From an uncultured Armatimonadetes bacterium (GTDB lineage Bacteria > Armatimonadota > Hebobacteria > Hebobacterales > Hebobacteraceae), in assembly GCA_963716175.1 (NCBI GenBank), contig OY970296.1, forward strand, positions 3,533,684 through 3,597,683: a DNA stretch of 64,000 nt, read 5' to 3'. Within the stretch, counting starts at the first letter, position 1. Each line of letters opens with the position of its first letter. The notes below the pieces were generated by a model that worked only from the letters and a program-made list of their open reading frames with translations, did not search any database and was not told where the DNA came from. The position numbers were made by a program, and so were the translations under genes. Positions 38,181 to 53,919 of this stretch are shown piece by piece.

Positions 38181-38184
38181 GTCT

Positions 38185-39933
38185 CTACCCGGCCGCCCGG
38201 CGAGCCCTGCCCGAGCGGACTACCTTGAAGGTTCCGGACGTCTTCTGCCATGCCACCAGGTAGTCGCCTGGGAGCAGCACCGACCAGGCCATTTCCCGGG
38301 GCGAGATGTCTCCATCTTGCCGCACCACACGCACCGGAACCGGCCGGCCCCTCCGCAGTGCCACTGCTTGTTCGAGGCTATTGCGGAAGACTTGTGCTCC
38401 CAGGTGGGTCTCTGGCAGATCCTGTACGTACAGGGCCAGATGGCCGCTTGGCCCTTGCAGCCGGTCTGCCAGATCAGCGCTGGCAGTAACGATCCGGGCC
38501 GCGGTTCGTCTCGCTTCCCTCCAGGGCAAGATGTACCAGGAGGTCAGACCAGCGGCGACGAGGAGGACGACCGCGATCCCAGCTCCGCGCTGCCAGCCCA
38601 TCTGGCGCGCACTGCACAGATCGCCGAAGAGCCACACCAGGCCAATCGTTGGCAAGTAAGCGAACCGGCTGTGTTCCAAGTCTGGCGCGGCTGCCGCCAG
38701 CGTCCACGCTGGCACCAGCATGAACAGGAAGAAGCCCGACCACAGCATGAGCCGACGACCGGGCACTCCTCCGAGTTGGCGCATCATCCACAGCAGGCCC
38801 AGTGCCATCAGCACCACAGTGACGGGCAGCCAGGGTCCACCCGCGAGCCGGAACAGGTCCTGATGAACCGGGAAGAAGAAGGCGACGATATGCCGAAAGG
38901 GCGTCCATGGCAAGACGGTGTCGTGGGCAGTCAGGTGGAGAGGGTATCCGCCCAGTCCGCCCCTGACGTGAATGCGCCACGCCAGATACCCGCAGAGCAC
39001 GATCGAGTAGCATCCCCCGACCATCACTGTGCGCCGCCAGCGGCCTTCCGGCTGCCCCAGAGCGGCCCAGAGCAGGGCCGCCGCTGGCAGCGCCAGGGCC
39101 GCCTCCTTGCTCAACAGGGCAAGCAGGAAGCTGCCCAGCGCGGCGGCCATGGCGAGCCACTGCCAGGCCCGCGCGGAGGAGGTGAGATAGGCCTGCAGGC
39201 TGAGCAGGGACAGGAGACAGAAGCAGGTGCACAGCAGGTCGGCGCTGCAGGAGGCCCAGACCACGGTTTCCACGTGAAGCGGATGCAACGCGAACAGCAT
39301 TCCCGCCAGGCCCGCCCCCAGTCTGCTGCCGGTCACACGACTCGCCAGCAGGTAGACCAGGACCGAGTTGGCCGCGTGCAGAGAGACGCTGGCGAGATGA
39401 TAGCCCATGGGCGCCCCTGCCCAGGCCTTCACGCCGATCCACCATAGCAGCATGGACACCGGCCGAGAGAAGTACTCCAGCACCTGACTGGTTGCTGCTT
39501 CGCGTAGGCCTCCGGCGGACTGCGCCACCCAGAGCAACCCGAAGTCGTCCGAGAGGAGGCCGACCTTCAGGCTTGGGAGATACACCAGGATGGCGGCCGC
39601 TATCACGGCAGTGGCAGGAGCCAGGCTCCTGCCCAATATGGCAGGCGCCGCCCGCGTCTCCGGCGTCTTGCTCGCGGCCGCAGGCGAGAAACCCAAGAGC
39701 CCGCGCCCGGCCACGGCCACCACTACCAGGCAGAGGGCGGCGACATTCGCGCTCCATTCCGCTGTCGGGAGGGCCGGCAGAAACCACCACCGCCACGCCA
39801 GGGCGGCCACCGCGATGCCGGCCGCCGCATTCACCAGGCGACGATCTCGCCTCCCGGCGGCCGCGGCGAGCCGGCCGGTCTTGCTCGTCCTCTTCCCGCG
39901 GGCGCGAGGTGGGCGCTTGAGGCCGTGGTGCAC
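38185..39933 (-). CDS. GT-C-fold membrane glycosyltransferase, TMTC/PMT-like (DUF1736-like YHL.N..LH motif)
   Basis: start trimmed to GTG just after the flavoprotein stop; YHLASVSLHAANSVLVYLL, HPLHVETV motifs; TPR partner encoded separately downstream. Confidence 0.65.
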   Translation of the reverse strand: MHHGLKRPPRARGKRTSKTGRLAAAAGRRDRRLVNAAAGIAVAALAWRWWFLPALPTAEWSANVAALCLVVVAVAGRGLLGFSPAAASKTPETRAAPAILGRSLAPATAVIAAAILVYLPSLKVGLLSDDFGLLWVAQSAGGLREAATSQVLEYFSRPVSMLLWWIGVKAWAGAPMGYHLASVSLHAANSVLVYLLASRVTGSRLGAGLAGMLFALHPLHVETVVWASCSADLLCTCFCLLSLLSLQAYLTSSARAWQWLAMAAALGSFLLALLSKEAALALPAAALLWAALGQPEGRWRRTVMVGGCYSIVLCGYLAWRIHVRGGLGGYPLHLTAHDTVLPWTPFRHIVAFFFPVHQDLFRLAGGPWLPVTVVLMALGLLWMMRQLGGVPGRRLMLWSGFFLFMLVPAWTLAAAAPDLEHSRFAYLPTIGLVWLFGDLCSARQMGWQRGAGIAVVLLVAAGLTSWYILPWREARRTAARIVTASADLADRLQGPSGHLALYVQDLPETHLGAQVFRNSLEQAVALRRGRPVPVRVVRQDGDISPREMAWSVLLPGDYLVAWQKTSGTFKVVRSGRARRAAG

Positions 39934-39935
39934 TT

Positions 39936-40523
39936 TCAGTCCCCCAGGCTGAGCTGCGCCAACCGCCGCCCCAGATCGCGCGCGGCCTCTAGCGCTCGCG
40001 CGTCTTGCAGAACATCGCCCGGGTCGCGTCCCACCGCACATACCTGCCAGCCCGCGTCGGAGGGGGAACCGGCCAGCATCATCCCGTGGTTGAGGGCGCA
40101 GGCGAGAACATGCGTGGCCGCCACCTCCTGGCCGCCCCAACGTGCGGCCCCGACCGTCACCACGGCGATCACCTTGCCCGACAGCTTGCGTCCCATCCAC
40201 CACAGCGGCCGCATGCGGTCGAAGACCGCTTTCAACTGCGCTGTCATGCTGTTGAGATAGACTGGCGTGCCGAACACGATGGCATCGGCCCAACCGAGCA
40301 GGGGATAGAGCTCCGTCATGTCATCCTGTTGGACGCAGCGGCCGGAGGGATCGCGCACACAAGAGGCGCAGGCGGTGCAGGGCATGATGGTTCTTCCCGC
40401 GACCGTGAACAGGGTGGCGGCCGCGCCCTCCTCCCGCGCCGCCTCCAGCACCCGCTCCATCAACAGCTCCGTATTCCCGCCCTTCCGCGGGCTGCCGACG
40501 AGGCCGAGGATATGCTGCATCAT
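39936..40523 (-). CDS. iron-sulfur flavoprotein (Isf) / NADPH-dependent FMN reductase family
   Basis: SPRKGGNT flavodoxin-like N-term and compact CX2CX2CX7C cluster motif. Confidence 0.8.
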   Translation of the reverse strand: MMQHILGLVGSPRKGGNTELLMERVLEAAREEGAAATLFTVAGRTIMPCTACASCVRDPSGRCVQQDDMTELYPLLGWADAIVFGTPVYLNSMTAQLKAVFDRMRPLWWMGRKLSGKVIAVVTVGAARWGGQEVAATHVLACALNHGMMLAGSPSDAGWQVCAVGRDPGDVLQDARALEAARDLGRRLAQLSLGD

Positions 40524-40672: not shown

Positions 40673-42253
40673 ATGGCGAATCGGCTAACGAACAACATGC
40701 TTCGCCGCCTCGCCTCCGAGATCGGCGTCGTCCGCAAGGACCACGGCGGCCGGCTCCGCGTCTGCCTGGTCTACCCGAACACCTACTTCGTGGGCATGTC
40801 CAGCCTGGGCTTGCAGGCCGTCTACCATCTCTTCAACGCCCGCCCCAATGTGGTCTGCGAGCGGGCCTTCTTGCCTGACCCCGCGGACTTGGCCGACCTG
40901 GTCCGCACCGGCGCCCCGCTAGTCTCCTATGAGTCACAGACTCCTCTCCAGCAGTTCGATGCCATCGCCTTCTCCATCTCCTATGAACTCGATTACATGA
41001 ATCTCGCGCGGGTGCTGCGGCTAGCGAAGCTGCCAGTGATGGCCCACGAACGGGACGACCGCCATCCCCTGGTTGTGGCCGGAGGCGCGGCCGTTTCCAT
41101 CAACCCGGAGCCGCTCGCCGACCTGGTGGATTTGTTCGTGGTAGGAGAGGCGGAGCCGGTTTGCGATCGGTTGCTGGCGGCGCTCGCCGGCCGCCTGTCG
41201 AGAGAAGAGCTGCTGGCAGGGCTGCCGGACCTGCCAGGGGTACACGTTCCGGCCCGAGGAAGCTTGCATGAGGGCTTGGCGAGGAGAGCCGTCCAACGCC
41301 AATATGCCCGGCCTTTGGATGCCTGGCCGACTCACTCGCGCCTCCTCACGCCGGACACGGAGTTCGGCAACCTATTCCTGGTTGAGGCCGCCCGCGGCTG
41401 CGGGCGGGGCTGCAAGTTCTGCGTGACGCCGGCCTGCTACTGGCCGTTGCGGTGGCGCTCGGCGGGGAAGATCATGGAATCAGTGGAGGCCGGTCTGGCC
41501 CACCGCGATGCGGTGGGCCTGGTCGGTGCTGCTGTCTCCGACCACCCCGAGATCGAGGAGATCGCGCGCCGCATCCGAGGGGCGGGCGCCAGACTGTCGG
41601 TCTCCTCCTTGCGCGCGGACACGGTGTCTCCAGCGCTCATCGGAGTTCTGGCCGGGAGCGGCGCCCGCAGCATCACCGTGGCGCCGGAGGCGGGGAGCGA
41701 CCGGCTGCGCGCGGCAATCGGCAAGGGTATCTCGGAGCAGGAGATCATCAAGGCGCTGCGCACGGCCGCCGACGGCGGCATCAGGGAGGCAAAGCTCTAT
41801 TTCATGGTGGGCTTGCCCGGGGAAGGGGAGGAGGACGTCGCCGCCATACCCGCCCTGGTCCGTAAGTGCCTCACGGCCGCCCACCTCGGCGCGCTGACCG
41901 TCGCCGTCGGTGCATTCGTGCCCAAACCCCACACCCCGTACGAACGTGAGCCCATGCTGTGGGTCGCCGAGCTCTGGCGCCGGCTGCGCGCCGTCCGCGA
42001 GGAGCTGCGGGGCGAACCGCGGGTCAAGTTGGCGCTGGAGAGCGCCAACTGGTCCTACCTGGAGGGGGCGCTCAGTCGGGGTGACAGGCGCCTGGGGCCG
42101 GTTATCGCTGCCGCGGAAGCGAGGGGAGGCAACCTGGCGGCCTGGCGCACCGCCTTCCGAGAGGCCGGCCTGAGCGCCGAGCAGTTCGCCGGTCGCGCCC
42201 CTGAAGGTGAGCTGCCCTGGGGGTTCATCCTCCCAGACGGGAGCAGTTTCTGA
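40673..42253 (+). CDS. B12-binding-domain radical SAM protein (TIGR03960-like uncharacterised family)
   Basis: LVYPNTYFVGMSSLGLQ N-term, CGRGCKFC, 526 aa. Confidence 0.75.
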   Translation: MANRLTNNMLRRLASEIGVVRKDHGGRLRVCLVYPNTYFVGMSSLGLQAVYHLFNARPNVVCERAFLPDPADLADLVRTGAPLVSYESQTPLQQFDAIAFSISYELDYMNLARVLRLAKLPVMAHERDDRHPLVVAGGAAVSINPEPLADLVDLFVVGEAEPVCDRLLAALAGRLSREELLAGLPDLPGVHVPARGSLHEGLARRAVQRQYARPLDAWPTHSRLLTPDTEFGNLFLVEAARGCGRGCKFCVTPACYWPLRWRSAGKIMESVEAGLAHRDAVGLVGAAVSDHPEIEEIARRIRGAGARLSVSSLRADTVSPALIGVLAGSGARSITVAPEAGSDRLRAAIGKGISEQEIIKALRTAADGGIREAKLYFMVGLPGEGEEDVAAIPALVRKCLTAAHLGALTVAVGAFVPKPHTPYEREPMLWVAELWRRLRAVREELRGEPRVKLALESANWSYLEGALSRGDRRLGPVIAAAEARGGNLAAWRTAFREAGLSAEQFAGRAPEGELPWGFILPDGSSF

Positions 42254-42394
42254 CGCGAGGGGCGCCGGCCGCTCGCGAGCCCCTGCGGGAACGAGGAAAT
42301 GACAGGCCGGCCCGAGTTGAGGCTAGGCCCAGATGGCAGGTAGTGTCATCTGGGTCGCCGAAAGATAGGCTGTAGGGTGCAGATGTAGTGCAGA

Positions 42395-42423
42395 TTGACT
42401 TGACCTGGCCGCCGTGCTAGCAT
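42395..42423 (+). promoter_or_regulatory. putative promoter TTGACT-N17-TAGCAT upstream of giant gene
   Basis: hexamers read from sequence. Confidence 0.4.
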
Positions 42424-42432
42424 GGCGCTCGG

Positions 42433-42522
42433 ATGAGGACTTGGCCGGCGGCGGAGAGAACGCGGCCGGCGAGGGTTTTGGACTGGCCCTCCGCCGGCAA
42501 AGCAGGAGGCGACTCGACATGA
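42433..42522 (+). other. 29-codon upstream ORF (MRTWPAAERTRPARVLDWPSAGKAGGDST) ending in ATGA overlap with main start
   Basis: in-frame ATG..TGA; stop overlaps main ATG 42519; could be coincidental. Confidence 0.25.
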
Positions 42523-45500
42523 ACGCAGCGCTCCGGTTCGGCATGCGGCGGGGGTTGATCTTTGGGCTCAGTGGTCTGCTCCTTGCCGTTCTCTGGGCCT
42601 CTTCCCCGGCGCTCGCGGCGCTGGGGAAGAAAGAGCCGACCCCGGAGCAGAAGAAGTGGTGGAAGACCTTCTCGAATGAGGTCAAGTCGGCCAATATCGA
42701 GCGCCACGTCGTCAACCTGAGCAACTCAGGTCCTCGCCTGGCTGGCTATCCCGGGGCCGAGGTGGCGGCCGAGTATATCGCGAAGGAAGTGCAGGCCCTG
42801 GGCCTGAAGGATGCCAGCCACGGCGGCCTCGATCCCAAGCTCCCCTACCGCGAAGCTTACTGGGTGACCGTTCCCTGGGTCTGGGGGCAGCCCACGGTGG
42901 AGGTGCTGGTCGGCGGCAAAGCCGTGGCGAGCTATCCGGTCTATCCCCTCTGGCCGAACCTGGTCCGGACCTCCCAATTGCCGGAAGGGGGCAAGACCTA
43001 CCGCTTGATAGCTGGCGGTGATGGAAGTCTGGCCGAGTTCAGCGGGAAAGACGTCGAGGACACGGCCGTTCTGCTGCAGTTCTCCGGTGGCACCACGTGG
43101 CTGAACGCCCCTCGCCTGGGCGCCCGCGCGGTGATCTTCATCGAGCCGGAGGCGCTCGAGCGGGGCGAGGCCGAGGCCAAGTTCCTGCGCATCCCCATCA
43201 ACATCCCTCGCTACTGGATCTCCCGCAGCGATGCCAACCGCTTGATCGCCAGGCTGAAGTCCCAGCCGGAGGTGATGATCCGGATTCAGTGCCACATGAC
43301 CTGGGAGAGAAAGCAGGCCTGGAATATCGTGGCCGAGATCCCGGGCACCGACAAAGAGCTGAAGAAGCAGGCGGTCTATCTCACCGCCTACTACGACACC
43401 ATGTCCATGGTGCCCCAGCTCTCGCCAGGGGCCGAGAGCACCGCGGGGGCGGCCAGCCTGCTCGAGCTGACCAGGATTCTGGCCAGGTATCCCCCCAAAC
43501 GCACGGTGCGGGTGATCTTCAACGGGGCCCATTTCCTGGGTCTGGCTGGGGTTCGCAACTACGTCGCCACGCACCTGAAGGAGCTGACCGACGGCCTGCC
43601 GGTGAGGGAGCGGACGCGCTTCTTGGGGTTGATCCCCTACACCCACACCGTGATGAAGAAGATGCCGATCAACCTCTTCCTGGCTTTCGACCTGTCCACT
43701 CACCACAGCCGGGTTGGCCTCTTCTACAAGGGGTTCTTCTACGACCAGCGCGAGGATATGGATATCAGCCGCCAGTTCTCTGATTTCGCCCGCACCCTGA
43801 GAGAGAATGCGGGGCTGATGGCGGATTGGGAGACGACCAAGGGCTTCACTGACGCCGAGGCCGGGTTCGCGGATGGCGTGAACCCGATCTACGGCAAGCC
43901 CTGGCGCACCTTCATCTTCGGGAAGATCGCGCTGGACAATGAGCCCATCACTCTGGGTGGGGGACGGGGAGCAGGCTTCGTCACCACCGATGACTCCCGG
44001 CCCCTGTTGGACACCCCCTTCGACACCGTTGACCAGGTGAACTTCAAGAACCTGTACACGCAGAGCTGCTTCCTTGCCGCCACCCTGTGGGACGTCGTGA
44101 ACGACCCCAAGATGCCGGTGGACAAGGACCCCAAGTTCGCGCGGATGACGCTCTCCGGCGGCTTCGCCGAGCTGACGGCGAAGGCCCTGGCCTTCGATCC
44201 CACCAGGAGCGTGGTGGCCGACAAAGTGGTGTCAGGCACCATGGTGGTGGCTCGCATGTCGGACTCCACCCTGATGGGCACGCGCGGTGACCTGGTGGAG
44301 ATCGTTGACGACCGGGGCCGCAGCCACTTCTGGGGTTACCCCACCATCAACGCTTACGGCTGGCGCAAGCCCAGCTACATCGAGGCCTACCACACCAACC
44401 CGCAGACCGGCGACATTGACTACGCTCCCGACTGGGGCCCCATGGTCAGCCGCAGCAACCCCGATCCCACCCAGTTCTTCATCACCTCCGGCAAGAAAGA
44501 ATGCACCATCGTCATCTTCGACTGCGTCCCCATTGCCCTCTATGACCTGGTTGACCCGCAGAGCCTGACCACGCTCCGCTATATCAAGGTCTACGACGGC
44601 CAGACCGATGCCGAGCCCAGACGCTACGGGCTGACCGTTCCCCATCCCGAGCCGCTGCGCGGCCATGTGGAGGACGTGGCCCTGGTGTTTGCGGACAAGG
44701 GCCAGCGGGTGAAGGTGATGATGGGCCTGGGGGGCGGCTCGATCCGCATGCTGTTGCTGAACGCGGCGACCATCAGCCCCAAGTACGAGAGCGGGCTGGG
44801 GTATCTCGCGGACAAGCCCTTCGCGCTCTCCCACACCCCGCTGCGGGTGACACAGGACATGTGGAAGCTGGACGACCTGCGGATGAAGAAGCTGGAGGGC
44901 TTCCGCATCGTGAATGAGGTGGTGCGATCCCTGCACACCACCGCCGGGACGCTGCTGGCGAAAGCGCAGAAGGCGCTGGACCGCAAAGACTACGAGCTGG
45001 CCGATGCCGAGGCGCGAGCGGCCTGGGGCTATGAGGCGCGGGCCTATCCCGCCGTGCTCTCCACTATGAACGACGTGGTGAAGGGCGTGCTCTTCTACCT
45101 CGCGCTGATGCTGCCGTTCGCCTTTTTCGTGGAGCGCCTGGTGTTCGCTTTCCCCAACCTGCGCACCCAGATCTTCGGCATCGTCATCATCTTCGCGGTG
45201 ATCTGCCTGATCTTCAGCTTCATCCATCCCGCCTTCGAGATCACCAAGAACCCCTGGATCGTGCCGCTGGCCTTCATTATGGTGGCCCTCAGCGTGTTGG
45301 TGATCACGCTGGTGACGATGAAGTTCGAGACTCAGCTCAAGATGCTCCAGATGAAAGTCTCCGGGGTGCACCGCGCCGACATCGGGCGCATGAGCGTGGC
45401 CGCCGCGGCCTTCGCCCTGGGGATCAGCAACATGCGCAAGCGCCGCGCCCGCACCGTGTTCACCTGCCTCACCCTGATCCTGCTCACCTTCACCGTGCTC

Positions 45501-47156
45501 TCCTTCACCTCGGTGAAGACCGCCACTCGCTACAACGAGCGCCGCGCCAAGGGCAAGCCCACCTACCAGGGCCTGCTGGTGCGCAACGCCATGTGGGAGC
45601 CGCTGGAGGAGTCAGCCTATCGGGTGCTGGATGACGAGTTCGGCCGCAGCCGGGCGGTGGCGCCTCGCGCCTGGTTCTTCACCTCCAAGACCGAGGAGCA
45701 GTCCTTCCTGCTCGTGAAGAGCCCGGCCACCGGGACCACCTACGACGCCCGCGCAGTCACCGGGCTGACCCCGGCCGAAACCGAGGTCACCGGCCTCAAC
45801 CACGCCCTGCTACCTGGCGGGCGCTGGTTCCGGCCCGGCGACGTGCATGCCGCCATCATCTCCGCCCGCATGGCGGACGCCTTCCACCTTCTGCCGAGCG
45901 ATGCGGGGAAGGTGAAGATTGACCTGGGCGGCGTGCCGTATGACCTGATCGGCATCCTCGACGCCAGCAAGGCGAAGCGCATCCTGGATCTGGACCAGGA
46001 ACCGCTCACCCCGGTGGACTGGATTCAGATGCAGCGCATGGCGCGGCAGGGCGGCGGCCAGCAGCAGCAGGGCCAGAAGTCAGGGTTCCAGGAGTACCTG
46101 CACCTCTCGCCCGACCAGGTGGTGTTCGTGCCCTTCAACACCGCCATCAACCTGGGGGCGGAGGTCGAGTCCGTGGCGGTGAGCTTCATCACCCCGCAGG
46201 AGGTGAAGCAGACCCTCCGCGCCCTCATGCCCAGGCTCGGCTTCAACCTCTACGCCGGCACCGGCACTGAGATCCGCAAGTGGAGCGCCATCGGGCGCAC
46301 CTCCATCTCCGGGATGAGCGATATCCTCATCCCCATCCTGATCGCGGCCCTGATCGTGCTCAACACCATGCTGGGCGCGGTCTACGAGCGGGTGCGAGAG
46401 ATTCACATCTTCAGCTCCATCGGGCTCGCCCCCAGCCACATCGCCACCCTGTTCATGGCCGAGTCCTTCGTCTACGCCATCCTGGGCGCCATCTTCGGCT
46501 ACCTCATCGGCCAGGGTATGGCCAAGATCATCACCGCCCTGCACCTTCTGCCCGGCCTCTACCTCAACTACTCGTCCGTGTCGGCGGTGGCCTCCACCAC
46601 CGTGGTCATCGGCGTGGTGCTGCTGTCCACGGTGTATCCGGCTCGCAAGGCCTCCGAGGTAGCCACGCCAGCGCTCGATCGCCGGTGGCAGGTGCCGGAG
46701 CCAGTTGGCGATTCCTGGGACATCCCCCTGCCCTTCGCGGTCACTGGCGAACAGGCCAACGCGCTCATCCGGTTCATGGTGGAGTGGTTCGAGGCCTATG
46801 AGGAGTATTCCATCGGGGATTTCGTCACCCAGGATGTCACCAACTTCGAGGAGAAGGCGGATTACGGCACTGCCTACGTGATTCAGCTCATGGCCTGGGT
46901 GGCGCCCTTCGACCTGGGCGTCAGCCAGAAGGTGCAGCTGCGGACCGTGCCCACCGACATGGAGGACGTGTTCGAGATCATGCTCCACCTGGAGCGTGTG
47001 AGCGGAGACGTCTCATCCTGGCGGCGGGTGAATCGCCGCTTCCTCAACACCTTGCGCAAGCAATTCCTGATCTGGCGGACGCTGCGAGCGGAAGAGCGAG
47101 ACCGCTATCTGGGCCTGACCCCGGCCGCCGGCGCCGCCGCGGAGGCCGCCTCCTGA
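42519..47156 (+). CDS. giant (~1545 aa) envelope protein: signal peptide, M28/PA-domain peptidase-like ectodomain with substituted metal ligands, central unknown region, C-terminal FtsX/MacB-type 4-TM permease module
   Basis: AGGAGG SD 6 nt upstream; M28-like blocks (NIVAEIPG, AYYDTM, GAESTAGAAS); FtsX signature region ...ERVREIHIFSSIGLAPS... Confidence 0.75.
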   Translation: MNAALRFGMRRGLIFGLSGLLLAVLWASSPALAALGKKEPTPEQKKWWKTFSNEVKSANIERHVVNLSNSGPRLAGYPGAEVAAEYIAKEVQALGLKDASHGGLDPKLPYREAYWVTVPWVWGQPTVEVLVGGKAVASYPVYPLWPNLVRTSQLPEGGKTYRLIAGGDGSLAEFSGKDVEDTAVLLQFSGGTTWLNAPRLGARAVIFIEPEALERGEAEAKFLRIPINIPRYWISRSDANRLIARLKSQPEVMIRIQCHMTWERKQAWNIVAEIPGTDKELKKQAVYLTAYYDTMSMVPQLSPGAESTAGAASLLELTRILARYPPKRTVRVIFNGAHFLGLAGVRNYVATHLKELTDGLPVRERTRFLGLIPYTHTVMKKMPINLFLAFDLSTHHSRVGLFYKGFFYDQREDMDISRQFSDFARTLRENAGLMADWETTKGFTDAEAGFADGVNPIYGKPWRTFIFGKIALDNEPITLGGGRGAGFVTTDDSRPLLDTPFDTVDQVNFKNLYTQSCFLAATLWDVVNDPKMPVDKDPKFARMTLSGGFAELTAKALAFDPTRSVVADKVVSGTMVVARMSDSTLMGTRGDLVEIVDDRGRSHFWGYPTINAYGWRKPSYIEAYHTNPQTGDIDYAPDWGPMVSRSNPDPTQFFITSGKKECTIVIFDCVPIALYDLVDPQSLTTLRYIKVYDGQTDAEPRRYGLTVPHPEPLRGHVEDVALVFADKGQRVKVMMGLGGGSIRMLLLNAATISPKYESGLGYLADKPFALSHTPLRVTQDMWKLDDLRMKKLEGFRIVNEVVRSLHTTAGTLLAKAQKALDRKDYELADAEARAAWGYEARAYPAVLSTMNDVVKGVLFYLALMLPFAFFVERLVFAFPNLRTQIFGIVIIFAVICLIFSFIHPAFEITKNPWIVPLAFIMVALSVLVITLVTMKFETQLKMLQMKVSGVHRADIGRMSVAAAAFALGISNMRKRRARTVFTCLTLILLTFTVLSFTSVKTATRYNERRAKGKPTYQGLLVRNAMWEPLEESAYRVLDDEFGRSRAVAPRAWFFTSKTEEQSFLLVKSPATGTTYDARAVTGLTPAETEVTGLNHALLPGGRWFRPGDVHAAIISARMADAFHLLPSDAGKVKIDLGGVPYDLIGILDASKAKRILDLDQEPLTPVDWIQMQRMARQGGGQQQQGQKSGFQEYLHLSPDQVVFVPFNTAINLGAEVESVAVSFITPQEVKQTLRALMPRLGFNLYAGTGTEIRKWSAIGRTSISGMSDILIPILIAALIVLNTMLGAVYERVREIHIFSSIGLAPSHIATLFMAESFVYAILGAIFGYLIGQGMAKIITALHLLPGLYLNYSSVSAVASTTVVIGVVLLSTVYPARKASEVATPALDRRWQVPEPVGDSWDIPLPFAVTGEQANALIRFMVEWFEAYEEYSIGDFVTQDVTNFEEKADYGTAYVIQLMAWVAPFDLGVSQKVQLRTVPTDMEDVFEIMLHLERVSGDVSSWRRVNRRFLNTLRKQFLIWRTLRAEERDRYLGLTPAAGAAAEAAS

Positions 47157-47197
47157 GGGGGGCTGGAGAGCAAGTGGTTCCATTCTACACAGGATAG

Positions 47198-49261
47198 GTG
47201 ACCAGGTTGGCTGAGGAACTGGAGGAGAAACCGGAAGCCGCGCCATCGGGAGCAGACGAGGGCGAGTATTACATGGAGCGCCGGCCGGAGCTGGAACCGA
47301 CAGAGTTCCGCGAAGGCTTCACCATGAAGACGTTCCTGGGCGCTCTCTTCATCGGGGTCATCATGATGCCGGGAGCCATCTACCTGGCGCTCATGATGGG
47401 CCAGAGCATGGGGTCCGCGGGCCAGTGGACCACCATCATCCTGATCACCGAGGTTGCCCGCCGCTCCTTCACCAAGGTGTCCCGCCAGGAGCTGTACATG
47501 ATCTACTACATGGCGGGCAGCCTGCTGTCCGCCGGCGGGACGCTGGCCGGAGGCGCCTTCGCCTATTTCGTGTGGAACGCCTACCTGATCAACTCCACCG
47601 CGGCGCAGAACTTCGGCATTGCCAAGCTCATCCCGCGCTGGGTGGCGCCGCCGCTGGGGTCTTCCGCCTACATCCAGCGCACCTTCCTGCACCATGACTG
47701 GACCATTCCCATCGTGCTGACCGTGCTGGGGAGTATCTTCGGGCGGGCGCAGTGGATCGGCATGGGCTACTTCCTGTTCCGCACCACCTCCGATGTGGAG
47801 CGACTGCCATTCCCCATGGCGCCCATCGCCGCTCAGGGGGCCACGGCGCTGGCCGAGGTCTCGGAGGAGAAGGAGTCCTGGCGCTGGCCGGTGTTCAGCG
47901 TGGCCACCATGATCGGGCTGGTATACGGCTTCTTCTACGTCGCCATCCCCGTGATCACCGGCGGCTTCCTCGCCGACCCGCTGAAGCTCATCCCCATCCC
48001 CTTCATTGACTTCGTGCAGAACGCAGAAGATGCGCTGCCCACCAACCGGATCGCGATCGCCACCGATCTGGGGCCCATCTTCTGGGGATTCGTGCTGCCC
48101 TTCCCCATCGTCGTCGGCGGCTTCATCACCTCCATGTTCACCAACTTCCTGTTCTCGCCCCTGCTCTACCATTTCACCTACAGCCCCGTCCTGGGCAAGT
48201 CCACCCTGTTCCCGCAGTGGTCCAAGGGCATGAACCTGATCCAGAGCCAGATGATCCTCGGCTTCGATTTCTACATGAGCTTCGGCATCGGGATCTCGCT
48301 TGCCATCGCCGCCATCGGCCTCTACTCGGTCCTCAGCACCCTGTTGAAAGCCCGGGTGGCTCGCGCCCAGGGCGCGGCCACCAGAGGCTACCGCGATGTC
48401 CCAGCCGGCAGAGGCGACTTCCCCATCTGGCTGGCGCTGGTGGCCTGGGCCTTGCCCGCGGTCTACTACGTGATCCTGGGGCACTATCTGGTGCCCAGGT
48501 TCCCCGTGTATTGGCTAATCTTCTTCGCTTTCGTGTGGACCCCGGTGATCTCCTATGTATCGGCGCGCATGAATGGCCTCCGGGGGTGGGGCATTGACAT
48601 CCCCTACGTGCGGCCTGCGGTGTTCATCCTCAGCGGGTACAAGGGGGTGGACATCTGGTTCGCGCCCATCAACCAGGACGACCACGGTTGGGCTGCTTCC
48701 CAGTTCCGCGAGGTGGAGCTGACCGGCACCAGGATGGTCAGCGTGGTGAAGGCGGAGGCCTTCCTGCTGGTGCTGATGCTGTTCTGCAGCTTCGTCTACT
48801 GGTCATTCTTCTGGAAGACCAGCCAGATCCCATCCTCCCAGTACCCGTACGCCCAGATGTTCTGGCCCCTCAACGCCTTCTGGCAATGCCTCTGGGCCAC
48901 CGCCACTATGCCGCACAAGGCCGGGGAGGCCACCTTCTTGCTCAAAGCCGTCAAGCCCTCGATCATCGGCTATACCGGCGCCGGCGCCATGGCCCTCTAC
49001 TGGATCATGAGCGCCTTCCGGGTGCCCACCCTGTGGTATTACGGGCTGATCGGAGGCTTCAGCGACACCACCTGGGCCATCCCCAGCTTCATCGGCGCCA
49101 TGCTGGGGCGTTATTACTTCGCCCGCCGCTTCGGCAAGAACCGCTGGCGCCAGTACACGCCGGTGCTGGCCGCCGGCTATGCCTGCGGAGTGGGCCTGAT
49201 CGGGATGGTGTCCATCGGCCTGACCATTATCTTCAAGGCGGTGCGGTCGCTGCCGTTCTGA
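47198..49261 (+). CDS. polytopic membrane protein, distant OPT-family (oligopeptide transporter)-like
   Basis: 687 aa, ~16 TM; N-terminal ...FTMKTFLGALFIGVIMMPGAIYLALMMG resembles OPT N-terminus; assignment tentative. Confidence 0.55.
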   Translation: MTRLAEELEEKPEAAPSGADEGEYYMERRPELEPTEFREGFTMKTFLGALFIGVIMMPGAIYLALMMGQSMGSAGQWTTIILITEVARRSFTKVSRQELYMIYYMAGSLLSAGGTLAGGAFAYFVWNAYLINSTAAQNFGIAKLIPRWVAPPLGSSAYIQRTFLHHDWTIPIVLTVLGSIFGRAQWIGMGYFLFRTTSDVERLPFPMAPIAAQGATALAEVSEEKESWRWPVFSVATMIGLVYGFFYVAIPVITGGFLADPLKLIPIPFIDFVQNAEDALPTNRIAIATDLGPIFWGFVLPFPIVVGGFITSMFTNFLFSPLLYHFTYSPVLGKSTLFPQWSKGMNLIQSQMILGFDFYMSFGIGISLAIAAIGLYSVLSTLLKARVARAQGAATRGYRDVPAGRGDFPIWLALVAWALPAVYYVILGHYLVPRFPVYWLIFFAFVWTPVISYVSARMNGLRGWGIDIPYVRPAVFILSGYKGVDIWFAPINQDDHGWAASQFREVELTGTRMVSVVKAEAFLLVLMLFCSFVYWSFFWKTSQIPSSQYPYAQMFWPLNAFWQCLWATATMPHKAGEATFLLKAVKPSIIGYTGAGAMALYWIMSAFRVPTLWYYGLIGGFSDTTWAIPSFIGAMLGRYYFARRFGKNRWRQYTPVLAAGYACGVGLIGMVSIGLTIIFKAVRSLPF

Positions 49262-49276
49262 CGCAGTTCGCGCCTG

Positions 49277-50245
49277 TTGCGTCAGACGGTCAATGGTGGA
49301 GGCGGTTTGACAGTACAAGTAGATTACGATACGACAGCCATCGGATGGCACGGAGTCTCGGTCCGGGTTCCGGCGGACTGGACTCTGGGTGCGGTAGGGG
49401 GTGATCGCAAGTCCGGCTACCTGCGGGTAGATGACGAGCGCATGCCGCGGCTCCAGCTGAAATGGTCGCAGGGCCACATCAACCTGGAGAAGAAGCGAAG
49501 CGAATACGCCAACCGGCTGACCACGGGCAAACGCAAGCGGCCCACCGGGCTCACCGTGGACCTGGAGGCCCGGGTAATCAGCGGGCGCTCGAAGCCGAAG
49601 AAGGAGCTGGCCACCTTCGCCTGGCGGGGCCCGCAGTGCGGGATGGGGGTGCTGTGGAACTGCCAGGTATGCAACCGGGCCCTCATCGCGCAGGTGAGCT
49701 GGCAGCAGCCGGAGCGCCTGCACGAGGTGGCCCAGCAGGTGCTGGGGTCGCTGGAAGATCACGCCATCGGCGGCTGGCAGTTGTGGGGCGTAGATAGCTT
49801 CGCCTTCCTCGCGCCAGAGGGTTATGACCTGGCGAAGTGGAAGCGAATGACGCGCTATCTCGAGCTGACCTTGACGACCAAGAGGGAGGCCACCCTCCGC
49901 GCGGTGCGGTGGGGAATGGTGGCGCTGGTGCTGGGCGGGCGGACGCTGATGGAGTGGTACCAGGACGAGAACAGGCGGCGGCGCGATGTGCGGTGGCAGG
50001 CGCAGGAGATGGAGGTGAAGGGCCACCAGGCGGTGGCAGCCTGGGGTGAGCGCAGACGATTCGCAGGGAGCGTGAGAAAGGGCCTGGCCAAGCTGCTGGG
50101 GCGCAAGCCGGCGGTGGATTTCGCCGCTTGCGCCTGGCACTGCCCGGACTCGAACCGGATCTACCTGGCGGAGACGATTTACGCCGAAGGGCAGGATGTG
50201 CTGAAAGGAGTGGTGGACTCCATCCTCTGCCATGAGGAGGCGTGA
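49277..50245 (+). CDS. hypothetical protein with Cys-rich motifs (C.x7.C.x2.C ; C.x3.C)
   Basis: 322 aa; alternative TTG start 49307 with GGTGGAGG SD. Confidence 0.55.
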   Translation: MRQTVNGGGGLTVQVDYDTTAIGWHGVSVRVPADWTLGAVGGDRKSGYLRVDDERMPRLQLKWSQGHINLEKKRSEYANRLTTGKRKRPTGLTVDLEARVISGRSKPKKELATFAWRGPQCGMGVLWNCQVCNRALIAQVSWQQPERLHEVAQQVLGSLEDHAIGGWQLWGVDSFAFLAPEGYDLAKWKRMTRYLELTLTTKREATLRAVRWGMVALVLGGRTLMEWYQDENRRRRDVRWQAQEMEVKGHQAVAAWGERRRFAGSVRKGLAKLLGRKPAVDFAACAWHCPDSNRIYLAETIYAEGQDVLKGVVDSILCHEEA

Positions 50246-50640
50246 GCATGCGCCGGCGGCGCAGGCCACGGCTCACGGCCGAGCAGGTGCTGCAGTCCCG
50301 GCCTCTGCGGAACCCGAGGCTGAGGACCGAGAAGATCGAGGGGGGAGGCCTGCGCCTCCACGTGCCCCGGCGCAGCGAATGGTGGGCCCGGGTGCTGGCG
50401 GTGATCTTTCCGATTCCGAAGGAGCGCAGGCTAGAGCTAGATGCGGCGGGGGAGGAGGTGTGGGAGATGTGCGACGGCGAGCACACCCTGCGCCAGATGA
50501 TTGCGCTCTTTCAGGAGCGACATAAGCTGACCCGGGCGGAAGCGGAATGGTCGCTGCGGACTTATCTCCGCGATCTGGGTAAGAGGAACTTGGTGGCCTT
50601 CGCCATCGAGAAGCAGCCGGAGAAGAGGCAGCAGGGCTGA
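50242..50640 (+). CDS. PqqD-family protein (RiPP-recognition-element-like fold)
   Basis: VWEMCDG.HTL..MI..F....L....EW.L..YL..L....L pattern; overlaps upstream stop. Confidence 0.6.
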   Translation: MSMRRRRRPRLTAEQVLQSRPLRNPRLRTEKIEGGGLRLHVPRRSEWWARVLAVIFPIPKERRLELDAAGEEVWEMCDGEHTLRQMIALFQERHKLTRAEAEWSLRTYLRDLGKRNLVAFAIEKQPEKRQQG

Positions 50641-50654
50641 TCAGGAGAGACGGC

Positions 50655-51353
50655 ATGGCAAACGCAGGGCAAGTGGTTCCAGGGGGCCGCATTCAGATCG
50701 AGAGTCAGATCGTCCTTCCCTGGTCGCGCACTCTCCAAATGACCAGGGAGAATATCTTCGTCCGGTTCGGCCGGTCTGTGATCACCGCCTCCGGCATCTT
50801 CCTCGGCATTGCCTTCATGAGCGCGGTGCTGTTCGGCGCCGCTGCCGGCCGGGTGCAGCAGCAGCTGGCCACCTCGCAGTTGGGCTTGCTGGGCACTGAG
50901 AGCACCAGCGGCGAGACGCAGGCCAGGACGATCTGGCTGGTGGGCATGTCCCTGCTGGTGGCCACCGTCGGGATCGTCAACTCCATGCTGATGTCGGTCA
51001 CCGAGCGCTACAAGGAAATCGGCACCATGAAGTGCCTGGGGGCGCTGGACCGCTTCATCGTGCGCCTCTTCATCCTGGAGGCGGCGCTGCTGGGCGTCCT
51101 GGGATCTATCGTCGGGGCGCTGGTGGGCACCGGCGCCATGACCTTGGTCTACACCTATCGCATGGGCTGGGGCCACGCCCTCTCGAGCTGGCACGAGACC
51201 GCGCTGCGGCTCGGTGGTTGGTCCATACCGCTCTGGTTGGCGATTGTCCTCGGCATCGTCGTCGGTGGGCTGCTGTCCGTCTGCGCCGCTCTCTATCCCG
51301 CCTGGCGGGCCGCCAAGATGCCCCCGGCCGCGGCGCTGCGCTCGGAGTTCTGA
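50655..51353 (+). CDS. FtsX-like ABC permease, minimal 4-TM form without large extracytoplasmic loop
   Basis: 232 aa; ...SVTERYKEIGTMKCLGA... FtsX-type core. Confidence 0.7.
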   Translation: MANAGQVVPGGRIQIESQIVLPWSRTLQMTRENIFVRFGRSVITASGIFLGIAFMSAVLFGAAAGRVQQQLATSQLGLLGTESTSGETQARTIWLVGMSLLVATVGIVNSMLMSVTERYKEIGTMKCLGALDRFIVRLFILEAALLGVLGSIVGALVGTGAMTLVYTYRMGWGHALSSWHETALRLGGWSIPLWLAIVLGIVVGGLLSVCAALYPAWRAAKMPPAAALRSEF

Positions 51354-51500
51354 TGGGTCTCGCCAGACGAAGCAGTGGCGCAGACCATCGGGGCGCCTGC
51401 GAGGGCGCAGAGATGCTCGGCGTCCATTGCTGTGATGGGCGAGGGTGGTCAGTGCACGAGTCCATCTTGTGGTTAGCTTGAGAAGCCAGGGAGGCTGCGC

Positions 51501-52244
51501 ATGTCTGTCTACGAGTATATTGTGCGTACCAAGGACCTGATGAAGGTCTACACGATGGGGGATACGGAGGTGCGCGCGGTGGATGGCGTTGCCCTCGACA
51601 TCAGGCGGGGCGAGTATATCTCCATCATGGGGCCTTCGGGATCGGGGAAATCCACGCTCTTCAACATGATCGGAGGGCTGGACAAGCCCAGCGGCGGCAC
51701 GGTCTTCATTGACGAGACGGATATGGCGCAGCTCACCGCCTCCGAGCTCGCCTACCTGCGCTGCCGCAAGATCGGCTATATCTTCCAGACCTTCAACCTG
51801 ATCCCGGTGATGACCGCGCTGGAGAACGTCACCCTGCCCATGATCTTCGCCGGCCTCTCCACCGACAATGCTCTGGACAAGGGAGTCGAGCTGCTCAAGA
51901 CTGTGGGCCTGGGCGATCGGCGAGATCATAAGCCCACGGAGCTTTCCGGCGGGCAGCAGCAGCGGGTGGCCATCGCCCGCGCCCTGGCCAACGACCCCGC
52001 CATCATCCTGGCGGACGAGCCCACGGGCAACCTCGACCTGCGCACCGGCAAAGAGATCATCGCCCTGCTCAAGCAGATGAACGAGGCGAAGAAGGTCACC
52101 GTCATCTCTGCGACCCACGATCTGAAGATGATTGACGTCTCGGACCGGGTGGTGTGGATTCGGGACGGCAAGATCGAGCGCATTCAGGAGCGCGCCGACA
52201 TTGACGTGAAGGTCGGCGTGATGGAAGGCGAAGAGGTAGGATAG
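51501..52244 (+). CDS. ABC transporter ATP-binding protein (MacB/LolD/FtsE-like)
   Basis: Walker [10 protein letters not shown], signature [15 protein letters not shown], Walker [12 protein letters not shown]. Confidence 0.9.
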
Positions 52245-53710: not shown

Positions 53711-53919
53711 CATCGTGGTCGGTCTGGCAAGAGGGATGGGGTGAGGGATGTCGAAAGGACCGAGGCCGGGAGCGAGGTAAGGCCGTGCCAGGGCCGAGAC
53801 GCAGACGAAGAGGCAGCGATATACCCGAAGCCGCGGCGCAGCCGCCCGGCGCGGAATCTACTCAGGCCGGGGAGCCCGAGGTGGCCGAGGCTCTGCCGGC
53901 GGGAGGGGAAGAGAATCCC

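Follow-up and report, generated by a model that had tools for sequence, protein, structure and literature searches.

The closest described relatives of the locus analysed here are ABC systems of the type VII (MacB/FtsEX/LolCDE) class. FtsEX, acting with EnvC, PcsB or RipC, draws its energy from the cytoplasm and acts outside; it combines an FtsX-type permease and a MacB/FtsE-type ATPase with an extracytoplasmic peptidase-like partner, which in EnvC is catalytically degenerate. LolCDE uses two different FtsX-type subunits, LolC and LolE, with a single ATPase gene (lolD). These traits recur in a group of genes lying in a 64,000-nucleotide stretch of DNA from an uncultured Armatimonadetes bacterium (the window). 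The unit specifies two different FtsX-type permeases, one minimal and one of 1545 amino acids that contains a complete FtsX module (the giant subunit). It is a conserved, unstudied membrane machine of the Armatimonadota. A literature search returned no paper describing the six-gene system, and the preliminary description of this DNA was right in presenting the cluster as conserved and undescribed, with a MacB/FtsX-type ABC module at its core.

An ORF check of the window recovered, on the plus strand, all seven co-directional genes listed in the preliminary description, whose domain calls hold (Table 1). Homologues of each product number from hundreds to thousands, which marks the ORFs as real genes rather than chance occurrences in a sequence with 67% GC. 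From the radical SAM gene through the ATPase gene, the intergenic gaps measure 265, 41, 45, -4, 14 and 147 bp, the PqqD-like gene start overlapping the preceding stop. The giant gene starts at the ATG at 42519, the mechanical ORF start being 42414. The TTG at 49307, which follows a GGAGG, is most likely the real start of the 322-aa ORF.

Table 1. Coordinates of the genes and other features of the locus (window positions).
Feature	Position	Strand	Product or residues	Evidence or remark
Radical SAM gene	40673-42253	+	526 aa	PF19864 1e-46, PF04055 1e-20 (Pfam)
Promoter-like site	42395-42423	+		TTGACT-17-TAGCAT with TG, in the radical SAM-giant gap
Shine-Dalgarno sequence	42504-42509	+		AGGAGG before giant gene
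Giant gene	42519-47156	+	1545 aa	PF04389 M28 3e-9, PF02687 FtsX 3e-14 (Pfam)
Giant, ectodomain	42624-45074	+	residues 36-852	Alignment to YwaD
Giant, three extra TM helices	45075-45314	+	residues 853-932	Link ectodomain to FtsX module; highly conserved
Giant, FtsX module	45453-46634	+	residues 979-1372	Pfam, PDB sequence matches, hydropathy
Giant, cytoplasmic C-terminal domain	46671-47153	+	residues 1385-1545	Conserved family signature
OPT-fold polytopic protein gene	47198-49261	+	687 aa	No Pfam match of its own
322-aa ORF	49277-50245	+	322 aa	Identical to database protein P0241
PsbP/Mog1/DUF1795-like gene	49307-50245	+	312 aa	From TTG start
PqqD-like gene	50242-50640	+	132 aa	PF05402 2.5e-8 (Pfam)
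Small FtsX gene	50655-51353	+	232 aa	PF02687 9e-21 (Pfam)
ABC ATPase gene	51501-52244	+	247 aa	PF00005 2e-34 (Pfam)

Conservation was judged against 83 related loci. The conserved unit comprises six genes (42519-52244), the radical SAM gene lying outside it. Forty-three of these loci share the order giant, OPT-like, PsbP-like, PqqD-like, FtsX, ATPase, and 10 more, interrupted by contig ends, are compatible with it, so that the neighbourhood check called for earlier gave a positive outcome for these six genes; the flanking genes vary from locus to locus. The OPT-like gene almost always follows the giant gene directly, and in Armatimonadota the genes for the PsbP/Mog1-like Cys3His protein and the PqqD-like protein are also found downstream. 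Pairing of giant and OPT-like genes extends to Hydrogenedentota, Latescibacterota, Desantisbacteria and Brocadiia, where DUF6785/DUF6784 membrane proteins accompany them. Loci outside the Armatimonadota with the two genes adjacent are L022, L025, L057, L077, L078 and L080; in L026, L057 and L080, the tblastn matches to the two genes meet or overlap at their ends. The small FtsX and ATPase genes do not adjoin the giant gene in several non-Armatimonadota loci (L022, L057, L077, L078), and at 10 loci the OPT-like gene occurs without the rest of the cluster. The overall distribution is vertical, phylum-wide and of the housekeeping type.

The radical SAM gene, initially counted as part of the unit, adjoins it in no more than 4 of the other 83 loci, in varying position, and is missing from most, L001-L004 included. 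A promoter-like site lies between the two genes. It was recognised by consensus alone, three such sites being found in the region against 1.5 expected, and is a weak indication that transcription of the giant gene starts on its own. The radical SAM protein is of the B12-binding type; its best model, the uncharacterised TIGR03960 (NCBIfam 'hypoth_equivalog_domain'), outscores the RiPP radical-SAM models of that scan by a wide margin. These data bear on the suggestion that the locus serves RiPP maturation, export or immunity, the radical SAM enzyme and the PqqD-like element modifying a precursor and the ABC system exporting the peptide. A PqqD-family domain is indeed present, and the B12-binding radical SAM gene beside the unit has family members near the cluster in L006, L012, L019 and L024. 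However, that gene is absent from most loci and its best model is that of an uncharacterised family, the cluster contains no further modifying enzymes, and the PqqD-like protein falls under the lasso, PQQ and SCM cut-offs. Moreover, no conserved small ORF that might be a precursor was found in the loci compared, nor is there room for one, the FtsX-ATPase gap ranging from an overlap to 374 bp and often being below 70 bp. Together with the vertical spread, these points largely refute the RiPP reading, which we regard as extremely improbable.

The ATPase belongs to the MacB/LolD/FtsE group, and its translation has intact Walker A, Q-loop, signature, Walker B with catalytic Glu, and H-loop motifs. 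In the hydropathy map, the small FtsX shows four TM helices and a loop of about 29 residues replacing the periplasmic domain of MacB, LolC and FtsX. Against NCBIfam, the ATPase scores 235 bits with LolD, 226 with MacB and 202 with FtsE, each below the curated cut-off, and it scores 215 bits with the darobactin exporter ATPase model; the best matches of the ATPase (LolD) and of the small FtsX (lolCE) are far below cut-off. Membership in FtsEX was rejected on the equivalog models (FtsE 202 against a cut-off of 265, FtsX 35-40 against 225-255). LolCDE was rejected as well, its equivalog scores being far below cut-offs, as was MacAB, given the MacB score and the lack of a MacA adaptor. A BceAB- or MacB-like function in resistance to antimicrobial peptides or in their efflux, whereby the ectodomain senses a peptide antibiotic or strips it from its target, might be read from the darobactin exporter and MacB scores, from the BceB-like asymmetry of the FtsX modules, only one of which bears an ectodomain, and from the name 'ABC-type antimicrobial peptide transport system permease subunit' given by one source to a homologue. 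It is nonetheless quite improbable: the ATPase scores under every curated cut-off, inheritance is vertical across the phylum and not sporadic, and in the loci compared the cluster contains no two-component system, MacA-type adaptor or conserved outer-membrane factor.

The giant subunit (488 homologues) consists, from N to C terminus, of a signal peptide, a PA/M28-like ectodomain, three TM helices, an FtsX module with a MacB periplasmic core domain, and a cytoplasmic C-domain. A hydropathy script finds eight hydrophobic segments in a self-consistent topology, with the N-terminal domain outside and the C terminus inside. Sequence comparison with the PDB returned YwaD (5e-8), nicalin (5e-3) and YtrF (1e-8), with MacB and LolC also matched, while sub-sequences gave MacB_PCD (PF12704, 27.3 bits) and a weak PA match. 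Together with Pfam, these matches confirm the earlier view of a degenerate M28/PA ectodomain fused to its own FtsX permease. Within that module, TM1 is followed by the MacB-type periplasmic core domain (998-1268) and by TM2-4 with an intact coupling-helix motif. The secreted ectodomain, of about 820 residues, comprises a PA-like insert (~170-242), an M28-like core (~255-530), a region without domain match (530-770) and a probable helical stalk predicted from sequence (770-852). It lacks the catalytic Glu-Glu and the His/Asp metal ligands: alignment to YwaD places Y291, E306, H338 and F339 at metal and catalytic positions. Among 209 family members, His is replaced by Tyr in 162, the bridging Asp by Glu in 174, the catalytic Glu by His in 198 and the Zn-Glu by Phe in 152. 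Conservation of the replacing residues themselves suggests a retained non-catalytic site; D293, E306 and H338, which are conserved, might still coordinate a single metal and sustain some unexpected activity.

The same substitutions, affecting the catalytic Glu and three metal-ligand positions in nearly all 209 relatives, argue against nutritional peptide acquisition, in which the M28 domain would act as an aminopeptidase on the cell surface, its products being imported by the OPT protein. The database names 'M28 family peptidase' and 'peptide transporter' are in line with such a role, as is the placement of expressed M28 and OPT proteins of Fervidibacter sacchari under peptide catabolism (PMC11535203). 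Yet it leaves the FtsX modules, the ATPase and the cytoplasmic proteins unexplained, and appears distinctly unlikely. Genome papers on Armatimonadota interpret such genes as serving nutritional acquisition.

Alternatively, the dead M28 domain fused to FtsX could make the unit an FtsEX-like cell-wall regulator of the EnvC or PcsB/RipC kind. ATP-driven motion would expose the domain and activate a separate peptidoglycan hydrolase in growth or division, the OPT-fold permease recycling peptides. A pseudo-peptidase activator controlled by FtsEX has precedent in published reports (among them PMC7668044 and PMC10694151). The LysM repeats carried by a Poribacteria homologue of the giant subunit fit such a role, as does the vertical, housekeeping-type distribution. 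The SPOR and ftsZ genes downstream in the window point the same way; nevertheless, the SPOR gene is kept in only 5 loci and GrpE in 4, all close relatives, and both are absent at 50% identity, so that the hint of a division role drawn from this position extends no further than these. With the FtsE and FtsX scores far below cut-off and no conserved hydrolase gene in or beside the cluster in the loci compared, this alternative is unlikely.

The giant's C-domain has no match in Pfam or the PDB by sequence but is matched by 1469 cluster representatives. In the full-length proteins listed (1450-3053 aa) the match lies no further than about 200 residues from the C terminus; shorter proteins may be fragments. 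PADLOC-DB model PDLC01991 ('CARF_m8--CARF_LolE_TM') matches giant residues 802-1465 (E 1e-59), the C-domain alone matching positions 543-683 of 810 (E 6e-9). Conceivably, then, the giant subunit is an anti-phage or signalling effector of the 'CARF_m8' group, its C-domain sensing a nucleotide second messenger and gating the machine. But PDLC01991 extends 127 positions beyond the giant's end and the CARF part may be missing; the C-domain matches neither Pfam CARF families nor PDB CARF structures, no CRISPR, cyclase or other defence genes lie near the unit, and its chromosomal neighbours are core housekeeping genes (GrpE, ftsZ, Rho, serA). We consider this role very improbable.

The 687-aa protein of the window has no match in Pfam or NCBIfam, whereas PF03169 (OPT) is matched by 4 of 27 relatives (best 7e-8). 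Its AF2 model (pLDDT 82) had only two significant Foldseek matches in the PDB, both to barley Yellow Stripe 1 (7wst/7wsr; E 5e-11 and 2e-10, probability 1.0, TM-score 0.57-0.68). The fold thus sustains the proposal of an OPT-like transporter. The 312-aa protein is a cytoplasmic tandem PsbP/Mog1/DUF1795-like protein. Having six Cys, it was overstated as 'Cys-rich'; a conserved Cys3His(+Cys,His) motif is nonetheless present, C129, C289, C318 and H319 being invariant and C132 and H288 nearly so. The adjacent product was correctly ascribed to the PqqD family, as a PqqD-like (RRE-type) protein: its PF05402 match spans the whole 67-position model, it has a basic, Arg-rich N-terminal extension of about 50 residues, it scores under cut-off for all NCBIfam PqqD subfamilies, and the nearest solved chain is TbiB1 (E 0.32). 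Of the peptide theme proposed for the locus, the M28/PA-like, OPT-fold and PqqD-like calls stand but a peptide substrate is not secured, OPT-family substrates including metal chelates too.

The balance of probability tips toward an envelope machine of six genes with an asymmetric type VII ABC complex at its core, which moves a ligand-binding pseudo-peptidase ectodomain and works with an OPT-fold permease. Of the two readings offered in the preliminary description, the evidence favours that of a mechanotransmission system regulating an envelope pseudo-peptidase. Judging from gene order, a heterodimer of giant and small FtsX subunits would carry two docked ATPase copies. The FtsX stalk helices would relay ATP binding and hydrolysis, as they do in MacB, LolCDE and FtsEX, and the motion would shift the periplasmic core domain and the fused ectodomain. 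The latter may bind, rather than cleave, a peptide-bearing ligand at the cell surface, candidates being stem peptides of peptidoglycan, oligopeptides or segments of unfolded protein. Relatives of the giant subunit equip the ectodomain with further modules that bind surfaces, namely LysM, F5/8 type C, Big_5 and a parvulin PPIase. The ligand might be captured, released or passed to the OPT-fold permease for membrane crossing, gene order alone suggesting a physical link between permease and giant complex. On the cytoplasmic side, the C-domain and the PsbP-like and PqqD-like proteins would control or couple the ATPase cycle.

The machine so envisaged differs from FtsEX in that the partner is fused into the permease and is M28/PA-like rather than LytM, CHAP or NlpC/P60; its permeases form a heteromeric pair, it has an OPT-fold permease and two cytoplasmic proteins besides, and it scores below the FtsE/FtsX equivalog cut-offs. 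Compared with LolCDE, one subunit is devoid of any periplasmic domain, the giant ectodomain has no Lol counterpart and a LolA/LolB-type partner is absent. MacAB-TolC shares the FtsX fold, the periplasmic core domain and the ATPase type; in the unit, however, the ATPase is a separate protein, adaptor and conserved outer-membrane duct are absent, and the giant's ectodomain, extra TM block and C-domain are missing from MacB. BceAB-type transporters show the same asymmetry, a large extracellular domain on one FtsX module only, but BceB has both modules on one 10-TM chain, whereas here they lie on two, without a BceRS-type two-component system and with an ectodomain of another fold, about four times larger. 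The 687-aa protein resembles OPT/YSL proteins over its whole chain, and some relatives reach Pfam OPT, yet identity to Yellow Stripe 1 is only 13-15% and obligatory partnering with an FtsX-type giant is undescribed for OPT proteins. Likewise, the 132-aa protein resembles PqqD and RiPP recognition elements through PF05402, but lies under curated cut-offs, bears the basic extension and occurs in a locus without precursor or conserved modifying enzyme. Two PADLOC-DB models, the one above and 'CARF_m8--CARF_Beta-galactosidase_LolE_TM', share the stalk, extra TM block, FtsX module and first ~150 C-domain residues, and the strong match implies that the same or a sister family is already catalogued computationally; these models, which reportedly derive from the 2020 CARF census of Makarova et al., extend past the giant's C terminus, possibly with a CARF module that it lacks, and the unit has no defence context. 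Finally, nicastrin, nicalin and the transferrin receptor also have an M28/PA-type ectodomain, anchored to a membrane machine, in which the residues for zinc binding and catalysis are lost, nicalin being a weak sequence match; they are eukaryotic and single-pass, none is fused to an ABC permease, and the likeness goes no further than fold and family.

The seven co-directional genes that the preliminary description had grouped into one locus were all recovered by ORF calling on the plus strand of the window, exactly as it had placed them, and database searches returned hundreds to thousands of homologues of their products. Successive genes are separated by 265, 41, 45, -4, 14 and 147 bp. GC content in the window runs from 64 to 72%, the nearest relatives of all products lie in Armatimonadota metagenome-assembled genomes (names as given by the sources), and the cluster is surrounded by chromosomal housekeeping genes (sigma factor, SPOR, GrpE, ftsZ, DprA, Rho, a serA-type PGDH, 6S RNA and tRNAs). 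A consensus scan placed a promoter-like site between the radical-SAM gene and the gene for the 1545-aa protein (the giant). The terminator scan gave 6 sites versus 5.1 in shuffles, no excess, and the Rfam scan no RNA family within the cluster.

Homologues of the giant at 51-55% identity head the same six-gene order (giant, ~670-aa membrane protein, ~270-300-aa protein, PqqD, FtsX, ABC) in loci L001, L002 and L003/L004 of other genomes, the last two from candidate division KD3-62, with wholly different flanks (rhomboid, hemerythrin, SBP). An alignment of the OPT-like protein was scanned over one genome per species; more than 400 relatives were found and the best 80 loci retained. For the gene-order counts, the window proteins were compared by tblastn with 83 independent loci. 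The full order was kept in 43 of the 83, so that the neighbourhood stood up to comparison across genomes, and a compatible order broken by contig ends was seen in 10. Elsewhere (PqqD)-FtsX-ABC lay upstream of giant-OPT (6 loci, Zipacnadia and Desantisbacteria), giant-OPT-FtsX-ABC occurred once (Hydrogenedentota), an ABC gene on the opposite strand preceded giant-OPT in a single locus (L066), giant-OPT stood by itself in 12 loci (five broken by contig ends) and the OPT-like gene was alone in 10. The ATPase gene is adjacent in 50/83 loci and its product is 63-90% identical across the phylum. In some lineages the tblastn match ends of the giant and the OPT-like protein touch or overlap.

Membership of the radical-SAM gene in the cluster was not borne out: it lies nearby in only 4 of the 83 loci and at differing positions, upstream in L006 and L012 and downstream in L019 and L024, a recurrence too irregular for a core component, yet more than nothing. 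Its product matches PF19864 (1e-46) and PF04055 (1e-20) in Pfam; the best-scoring model is the uncharacterised, B12-binding TIGR03960 (328 bits; cut-off 462). The hint of a division role, drawn from the SPOR-GrpE-FtsZ genes downstream, also lost its footing, synteny being limited to close relatives: SPOR follows the cluster in no more than five loci (L003, L005, L008, L009 and L010), and of these L005, L008, L009 and L010 alone also retain GrpE. No further recurrent flanking gene was found across the loci, the SBP, rhomboid and M16 neighbours being non-recurrent. With the radical-SAM gene so rarely present, SPOR and GrpE confined to close relatives, no other recurrent flank and a promoter-like site in between, the conserved unit is the six genes from the giant to the ATPase.

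Other features of the window are collected in the table; ftsZ is split over two reading frames, reflecting either an assembly frameshift or a disrupted gene. Downstream of the cluster in L022 lies a gene for a HEAT-repeat + F5/8-C protein. In Chthonomonadales, one locus (L054) carries a DUF2092 (LolA-like) + redoxin/AhpC fusion between giant and OPT-like genes, and the corresponding place in L084 is taken by genes for a DNA methylase and a Uma2 nuclease; these were rejected as unrelated insertions. Both loci also carry, between the OPT-like and PsbP-like genes, a ~280-aa membrane protein (two copies, 38% identical; no Pfam match) ending in LYLDG(H/T)V, a motif that we take to resemble the H-X9-DG motif of prepilin-type/DUF1559 proteins. 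Considered as a member of the 312-aa family, this protein proved unrelated and lineage-specific.

Positions of features in the window, in the giant protein (residues) and in related loci (L numbers)
Feature	Position	Strand	Remarks
Quinolinate phosphoribosyltransferase-domain protein	8439-10493		domain preceded by ~300 residues without family match
tRNA genes	630-703, 21384-21469		two
6S RNA	875-1057		82 bits
IclR-type protein	22413-24164	-	583 aa, two tandem IclR units
HEAT-repeat protein	30200-32476	+	758 aa
Overlapping ORFs	37534-40293		637 aa (+), 702 aa (-), 440 aa (-); upstream of radical-SAM gene; no Pfam match
Radical-SAM gene	40673-42253	+	
Promoter-like site	42395		
Six-gene unit	42519-52244	+	
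Giant	42519-47156	+	1545 aa; likely start ATG 42519 behind AGGAGG
Giant, signal peptide	residues 13-31		then ALA/A; hydropathy and sequence
Giant, outside domain	residues 36-852		
Giant, three TM helices	residues 853-932		then basic cytoplasmic linker
Giant, FtsX TM1	residues 979-997		
Giant, periplasmic domain	residues 998-1268		MacB_PCD (PF12704), 27.3 bits against cut-off 27 on sub-sequence
Giant, TM2-4	residues 1269-1372		typical coupling-helix motif, aligned to YtrF
Giant, cytoplasmic C-domain			160 residues
CARF_m8 match region	45075-47153		giant residues 802-1545
OPT-like gene	47198-49261	+	687 aa
312-aa protein gene (previously 322 aa)	start 49307	+	likely start TTG behind GGAGG; identical to database protein P0241
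ftsZ	53785-54974		
ftsZ, first part	53785-54309		Tubulin model positions 2-89
ftsZ, second part	54204-54974		Tubulin model positions 112-189 + FtsZ_C
DUF6785+DUF6784 proteins	L022 16-1608, 3539-5569		
DUF6785+DUF6784 protein	L025 2711-4732		
DUF6785+DUF6784 protein	L057 11993-13891		
DUF6785+DUF6784 protein	L077 8037-9959		
DUF6785+DUF6784 proteins	L078 12-1718, 1906-3834		
DUF6785+DUF6784 protein	L080 3065-5101		
DUF2092 + redoxin/AhpC fusion	L054 8494-9648		
~280-aa membrane protein	L054 11980-12813, L084 9555-10397		

Pfam matches to M28 (3e-9) and FtsX (PF02687, 3e-14) confirmed that the giant fuses an M28/PA-like ectodomain to its own FtsX module in a single polypeptide. TM helices, signal peptide and stalk were assigned with a simple hydropathy script and by inspection rather than with dedicated predictors; the script gave eight hydrophobic segments. 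PF12704 is precomputed for many giant homologues, and the FtsX module matched the PDB sequences of YtrF, MacB, LolC and LolF. Sequence searches of residues 530-852 and of the C-domain yielded neither a Pfam family nor a solved structure. For the ectodomain, alignments were obtained with the aminopeptidases YwaD and 3iib, and a weak one with nicalin. In the YwaD alignment Tyr291 takes the place of a zinc-ligand His, Glu306 that of the bridging Asp, and His338-Phe339 that of the Glu-Glu residues that serve as general base and zinc ligand, so that the M28 zinc-ligand/catalytic-Glu set is not preserved, with the two C-terminal ligands lying outside the mapping. Among 209 family members, distant ones included, the replacing Tyr, Glu, His and Phe recur in 162, 174, 198 and 152, respectively. 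Because the same replacements dominate throughout the family, the ectodomain is, judged from its sequence, not a canonical M28 peptidase; the conservation of the replacing residues themselves points to a putative binding site retained in a degenerate M28 domain. In a published Armatimonadota study, "M28" and "OPT" proteins found to be expressed are assigned to peptide catabolism (PMC11535203). The state of the active site contradicts the corresponding alternative, a nutritional peptidase with its importer, which we consider quite unlikely.

Searched in full with HMMER, 1.84 billion representatives gave 1469 matches to the C-domain at E <= 1e-3. Among the full-length matches listed (1450-3053 aa), it lies at the C-terminus or at most ~200 residues from it; shorter matches may be gene fragments. 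The C-domain is the signature of the giant family. The ectodomains of longer relatives gain Big_5 or a parvulin PPIase, LysM repeats are found in Candidatus Poribacteria and F5/8 type C domains in Desantisbacteria, all of them modules for surface binding or chaperoning, as would suit an ectodomain at work in the periplasm or wall.

The membrane half of the giant is also matched by two PADLOC-DB models, PDLC01991/PDLC01990 (CARF_m8; E 1.3e-59, 200 bits, model positions 24-634 of 810), labelled "CARF_m8--CARF_LolE_TM" and "CARF_m8--CARF_Beta-galactosidase_LolE_TM". The C-domain alone matches the former (positions 543-683 of 810, E 6e-9) and gave no match to Pfam and PDB CARF families. As the model runs 127 positions past the end of the giant, the CARF module may be absent here. 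The models, which presumably derive from the 2020 CARF census, indicate that the giant family, or a sister branch, has already figured in a computational census; their defence label is probably no functional statement for this locus. A defence or signalling effector, for which this label is the sole basis, was set aside for want of a defence context and seems very improbable.

The second FtsX protein (232 aa; PF02687, 9e-21) has four TM helices and a ~29-residue loop in place of the periplasmic domain, PF12704 being absent. The ATPase (247 aa; ABC_tran, 2e-34) has all motifs intact, and its top NCBIfam models are LolD, MacB, DarD and FtsE, all below cut-off. The MacB-type ABC module proposed at the outset is thereby upheld: PF02687 in the giant and the small FtsX, MacB_PCD, and a cognate MacB/LolD/FtsE-type ATPase. 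In the 312-aa protein C129, C289, C318 and H319 are invariant, and C132 and H288 nearly so; from these a predicted structural zinc site can reasonably be inferred. This protein, one of two for which a structure was modelled (the other being the OPT-like protein), has the features of a PsbP/Mog1/DUF1795-like fold, an alpha-beta-alpha sandwich with antiparallel sheet. Folds of this kind bind proteins or ligands in widely differing contexts and do not point to a function. Profiles of the 312-aa family and of the C-domain gave nothing significant against PDB sequences. The 132-aa protein covers the whole PqqD model (PF05402; 2.5e-8, 34.6 bits against a gathering score of 23.4), in agreement with its earlier assignment; it scores below the curated PqqD subfamilies (lasso, PQQ, SCM), has a basic N-terminal extension and among PDB sequences found only TbiB1, at E 0.32. 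A RiPP cluster, previously offered as one reading of the locus, now appears most improbable: the search for a precursor ORF found no conserved small ORF in the FtsX-ATPase gap, the intergenic gaps are too short and variable, and the unit lacks a conserved enzyme, the radical-SAM gene being so sparsely shared.

The 687-aa protein has no Pfam or NCBIfam match of its own, and its family profile returned nothing significant against PDB sequences. PF03169 (OPT) was reached by 4 of 27 relatives, with a best value of 7e-8; the database protein P0143 scored 24.7 bits against a cut-off of 25.8. When the AlphaFold2 model (pLDDT 82) was compared with solved structures by Foldseek, the only match was barley Yellow Stripe 1 (HvYS1 7wst/7wsr; E 5e-11 and 2e-10, probability 1.0, TM-score 0.57-0.68), the next-ranked structure having an E of 0.02. 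Since Yellow Stripe 1 is an OPT-family transporter, the original designation as OPT-like is correct at the level of the modelled fold. In lineages outside Armatimonadota, one or two membrane proteins of ~640-680 aa with DUF6785+DUF6784 (Pfam E 1e-135 to 1e-152) accompany the giant-OPT pair; no paper on these uncharacterised families was found. These proteins share with the OPT-like family an E[KR]LxFP motif in collinear position, and hhalign gave a weak collinear match for DUF6785 (probability 28%, E 6e-4), so that kinship is only hinted at by the sequences.

By analogy with MacB, LolCDE and FtsEX, two copies of the ATPase would sit on a heterodimer of the giant and the small FtsX, and the long TM1/TM2 helices would relay the ATP cycle to the periplasmic core domain and thence, via the stalk and the extra TM block, to the fused ectodomain. 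Gene linkage suggests that the ectodomain would bind a peptide-bearing ligand and co-operate with the OPT-fold permease, and that the C-domain and the PsbP-like and PqqD-like proteins would act from the cytoplasmic side. We hold this general mechanism, a type VII ABC cycle moving a fused ectodomain with an OPT-fold permease, to have slightly better than even chances, and any particular ligand much lower ones. More tentatively, and with the odds against the whole combination, the unit might represent a new class of ATP-powered envelope machine. Its FtsX mechanotransmitter, fused to a nicastrin/transferrin-receptor-like pseudo-peptidase receptor, would be physically coupled to an OPT-fold channel; cytoplasmic ATP hydrolysis would gate the capture and translocation of a peptide-bearing molecule (candidates are cell-wall stem peptides, oligopeptides and protein segments) across the cytoplasmic membrane; and control would be exerted from the cytoplasm by the PqqD-like protein, the PsbP-like zinc protein and the family-specific C-domain. 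If true, a type VII ABC system would for the first time be seen to energise a secondary-transporter fold, and the machine would be one that nearly all Armatimonadota possess and that several candidate phyla also have.

Full-text literature searches brought up no paper describing the system, in keeping with the first impression that the combination was not a described one. Because it is large, strongly conserved and named only generically in databases, the system probably belongs to the core of envelope physiology in Armatimonadota and is misread by annotation as "peptidase plus peptide transporter". Among the genomes compared, MAGs of Armatimonas, Chthonomonas and Capsulimonadaceae have the cluster, which could serve as a concrete target in those few Armatimonadota that are in culture. 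We know of almost no functional data on bacterial OPT proteins; here an OPT-fold transporter is an obligatory neighbour in several poorly known phyla.

Type VII ABC systems (MacB, LolCDE, FtsEX, BceAB) have central roles in building the envelope, in division and in resistance to antibiotics. The marks of this MacB/FtsX-fold superfamily, a four-TM FtsX domain, MacB_PCD between TM1 and TM2 and a cognate ATPase, are all present in the unit. It differs from FtsEX in its scores against the equivalog models (FtsE model TIGR02673, 202 bits versus a cut-off of 264.85; FtsX models, 35-40 bits versus 225-255) and in lacking a conserved link to division genes. A regulator of the FtsEX kind to which a dead, EnvC-like peptidase is fused is made attractive by the LysM-bearing relatives, but is rather unlikely in view of these differences and of the lack of a conserved hydrolase partner. 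The LolD, LolC and LolE equivalog models likewise separate the unit from LolCDE (LolD 235 against 307.75; lolCE model 62.9 for the small FtsX and 18.8 for the giant against 362.45). In MacAB-TolC the ATPase is fused to the permease, whereas here it is a separate gene; no HlyD-type adaptor gene occurs in any locus examined and no outer-membrane factor is encoded, the only OEP gene lying ~9 kb upstream in L003/L004. Resistance of the BceAB/MacB type is decidedly improbable, the unit having neither the accessory genes nor the sporadic distribution. To our knowledge, every well-studied type VII ABC system acts on partners that are separate from it; in this unit the permease itself includes the effector-like domain, and the two permeases form an extremely asymmetric pair. 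Such a natural fusion might reveal how force passes from FtsX-type proteins to the partners on which they act.
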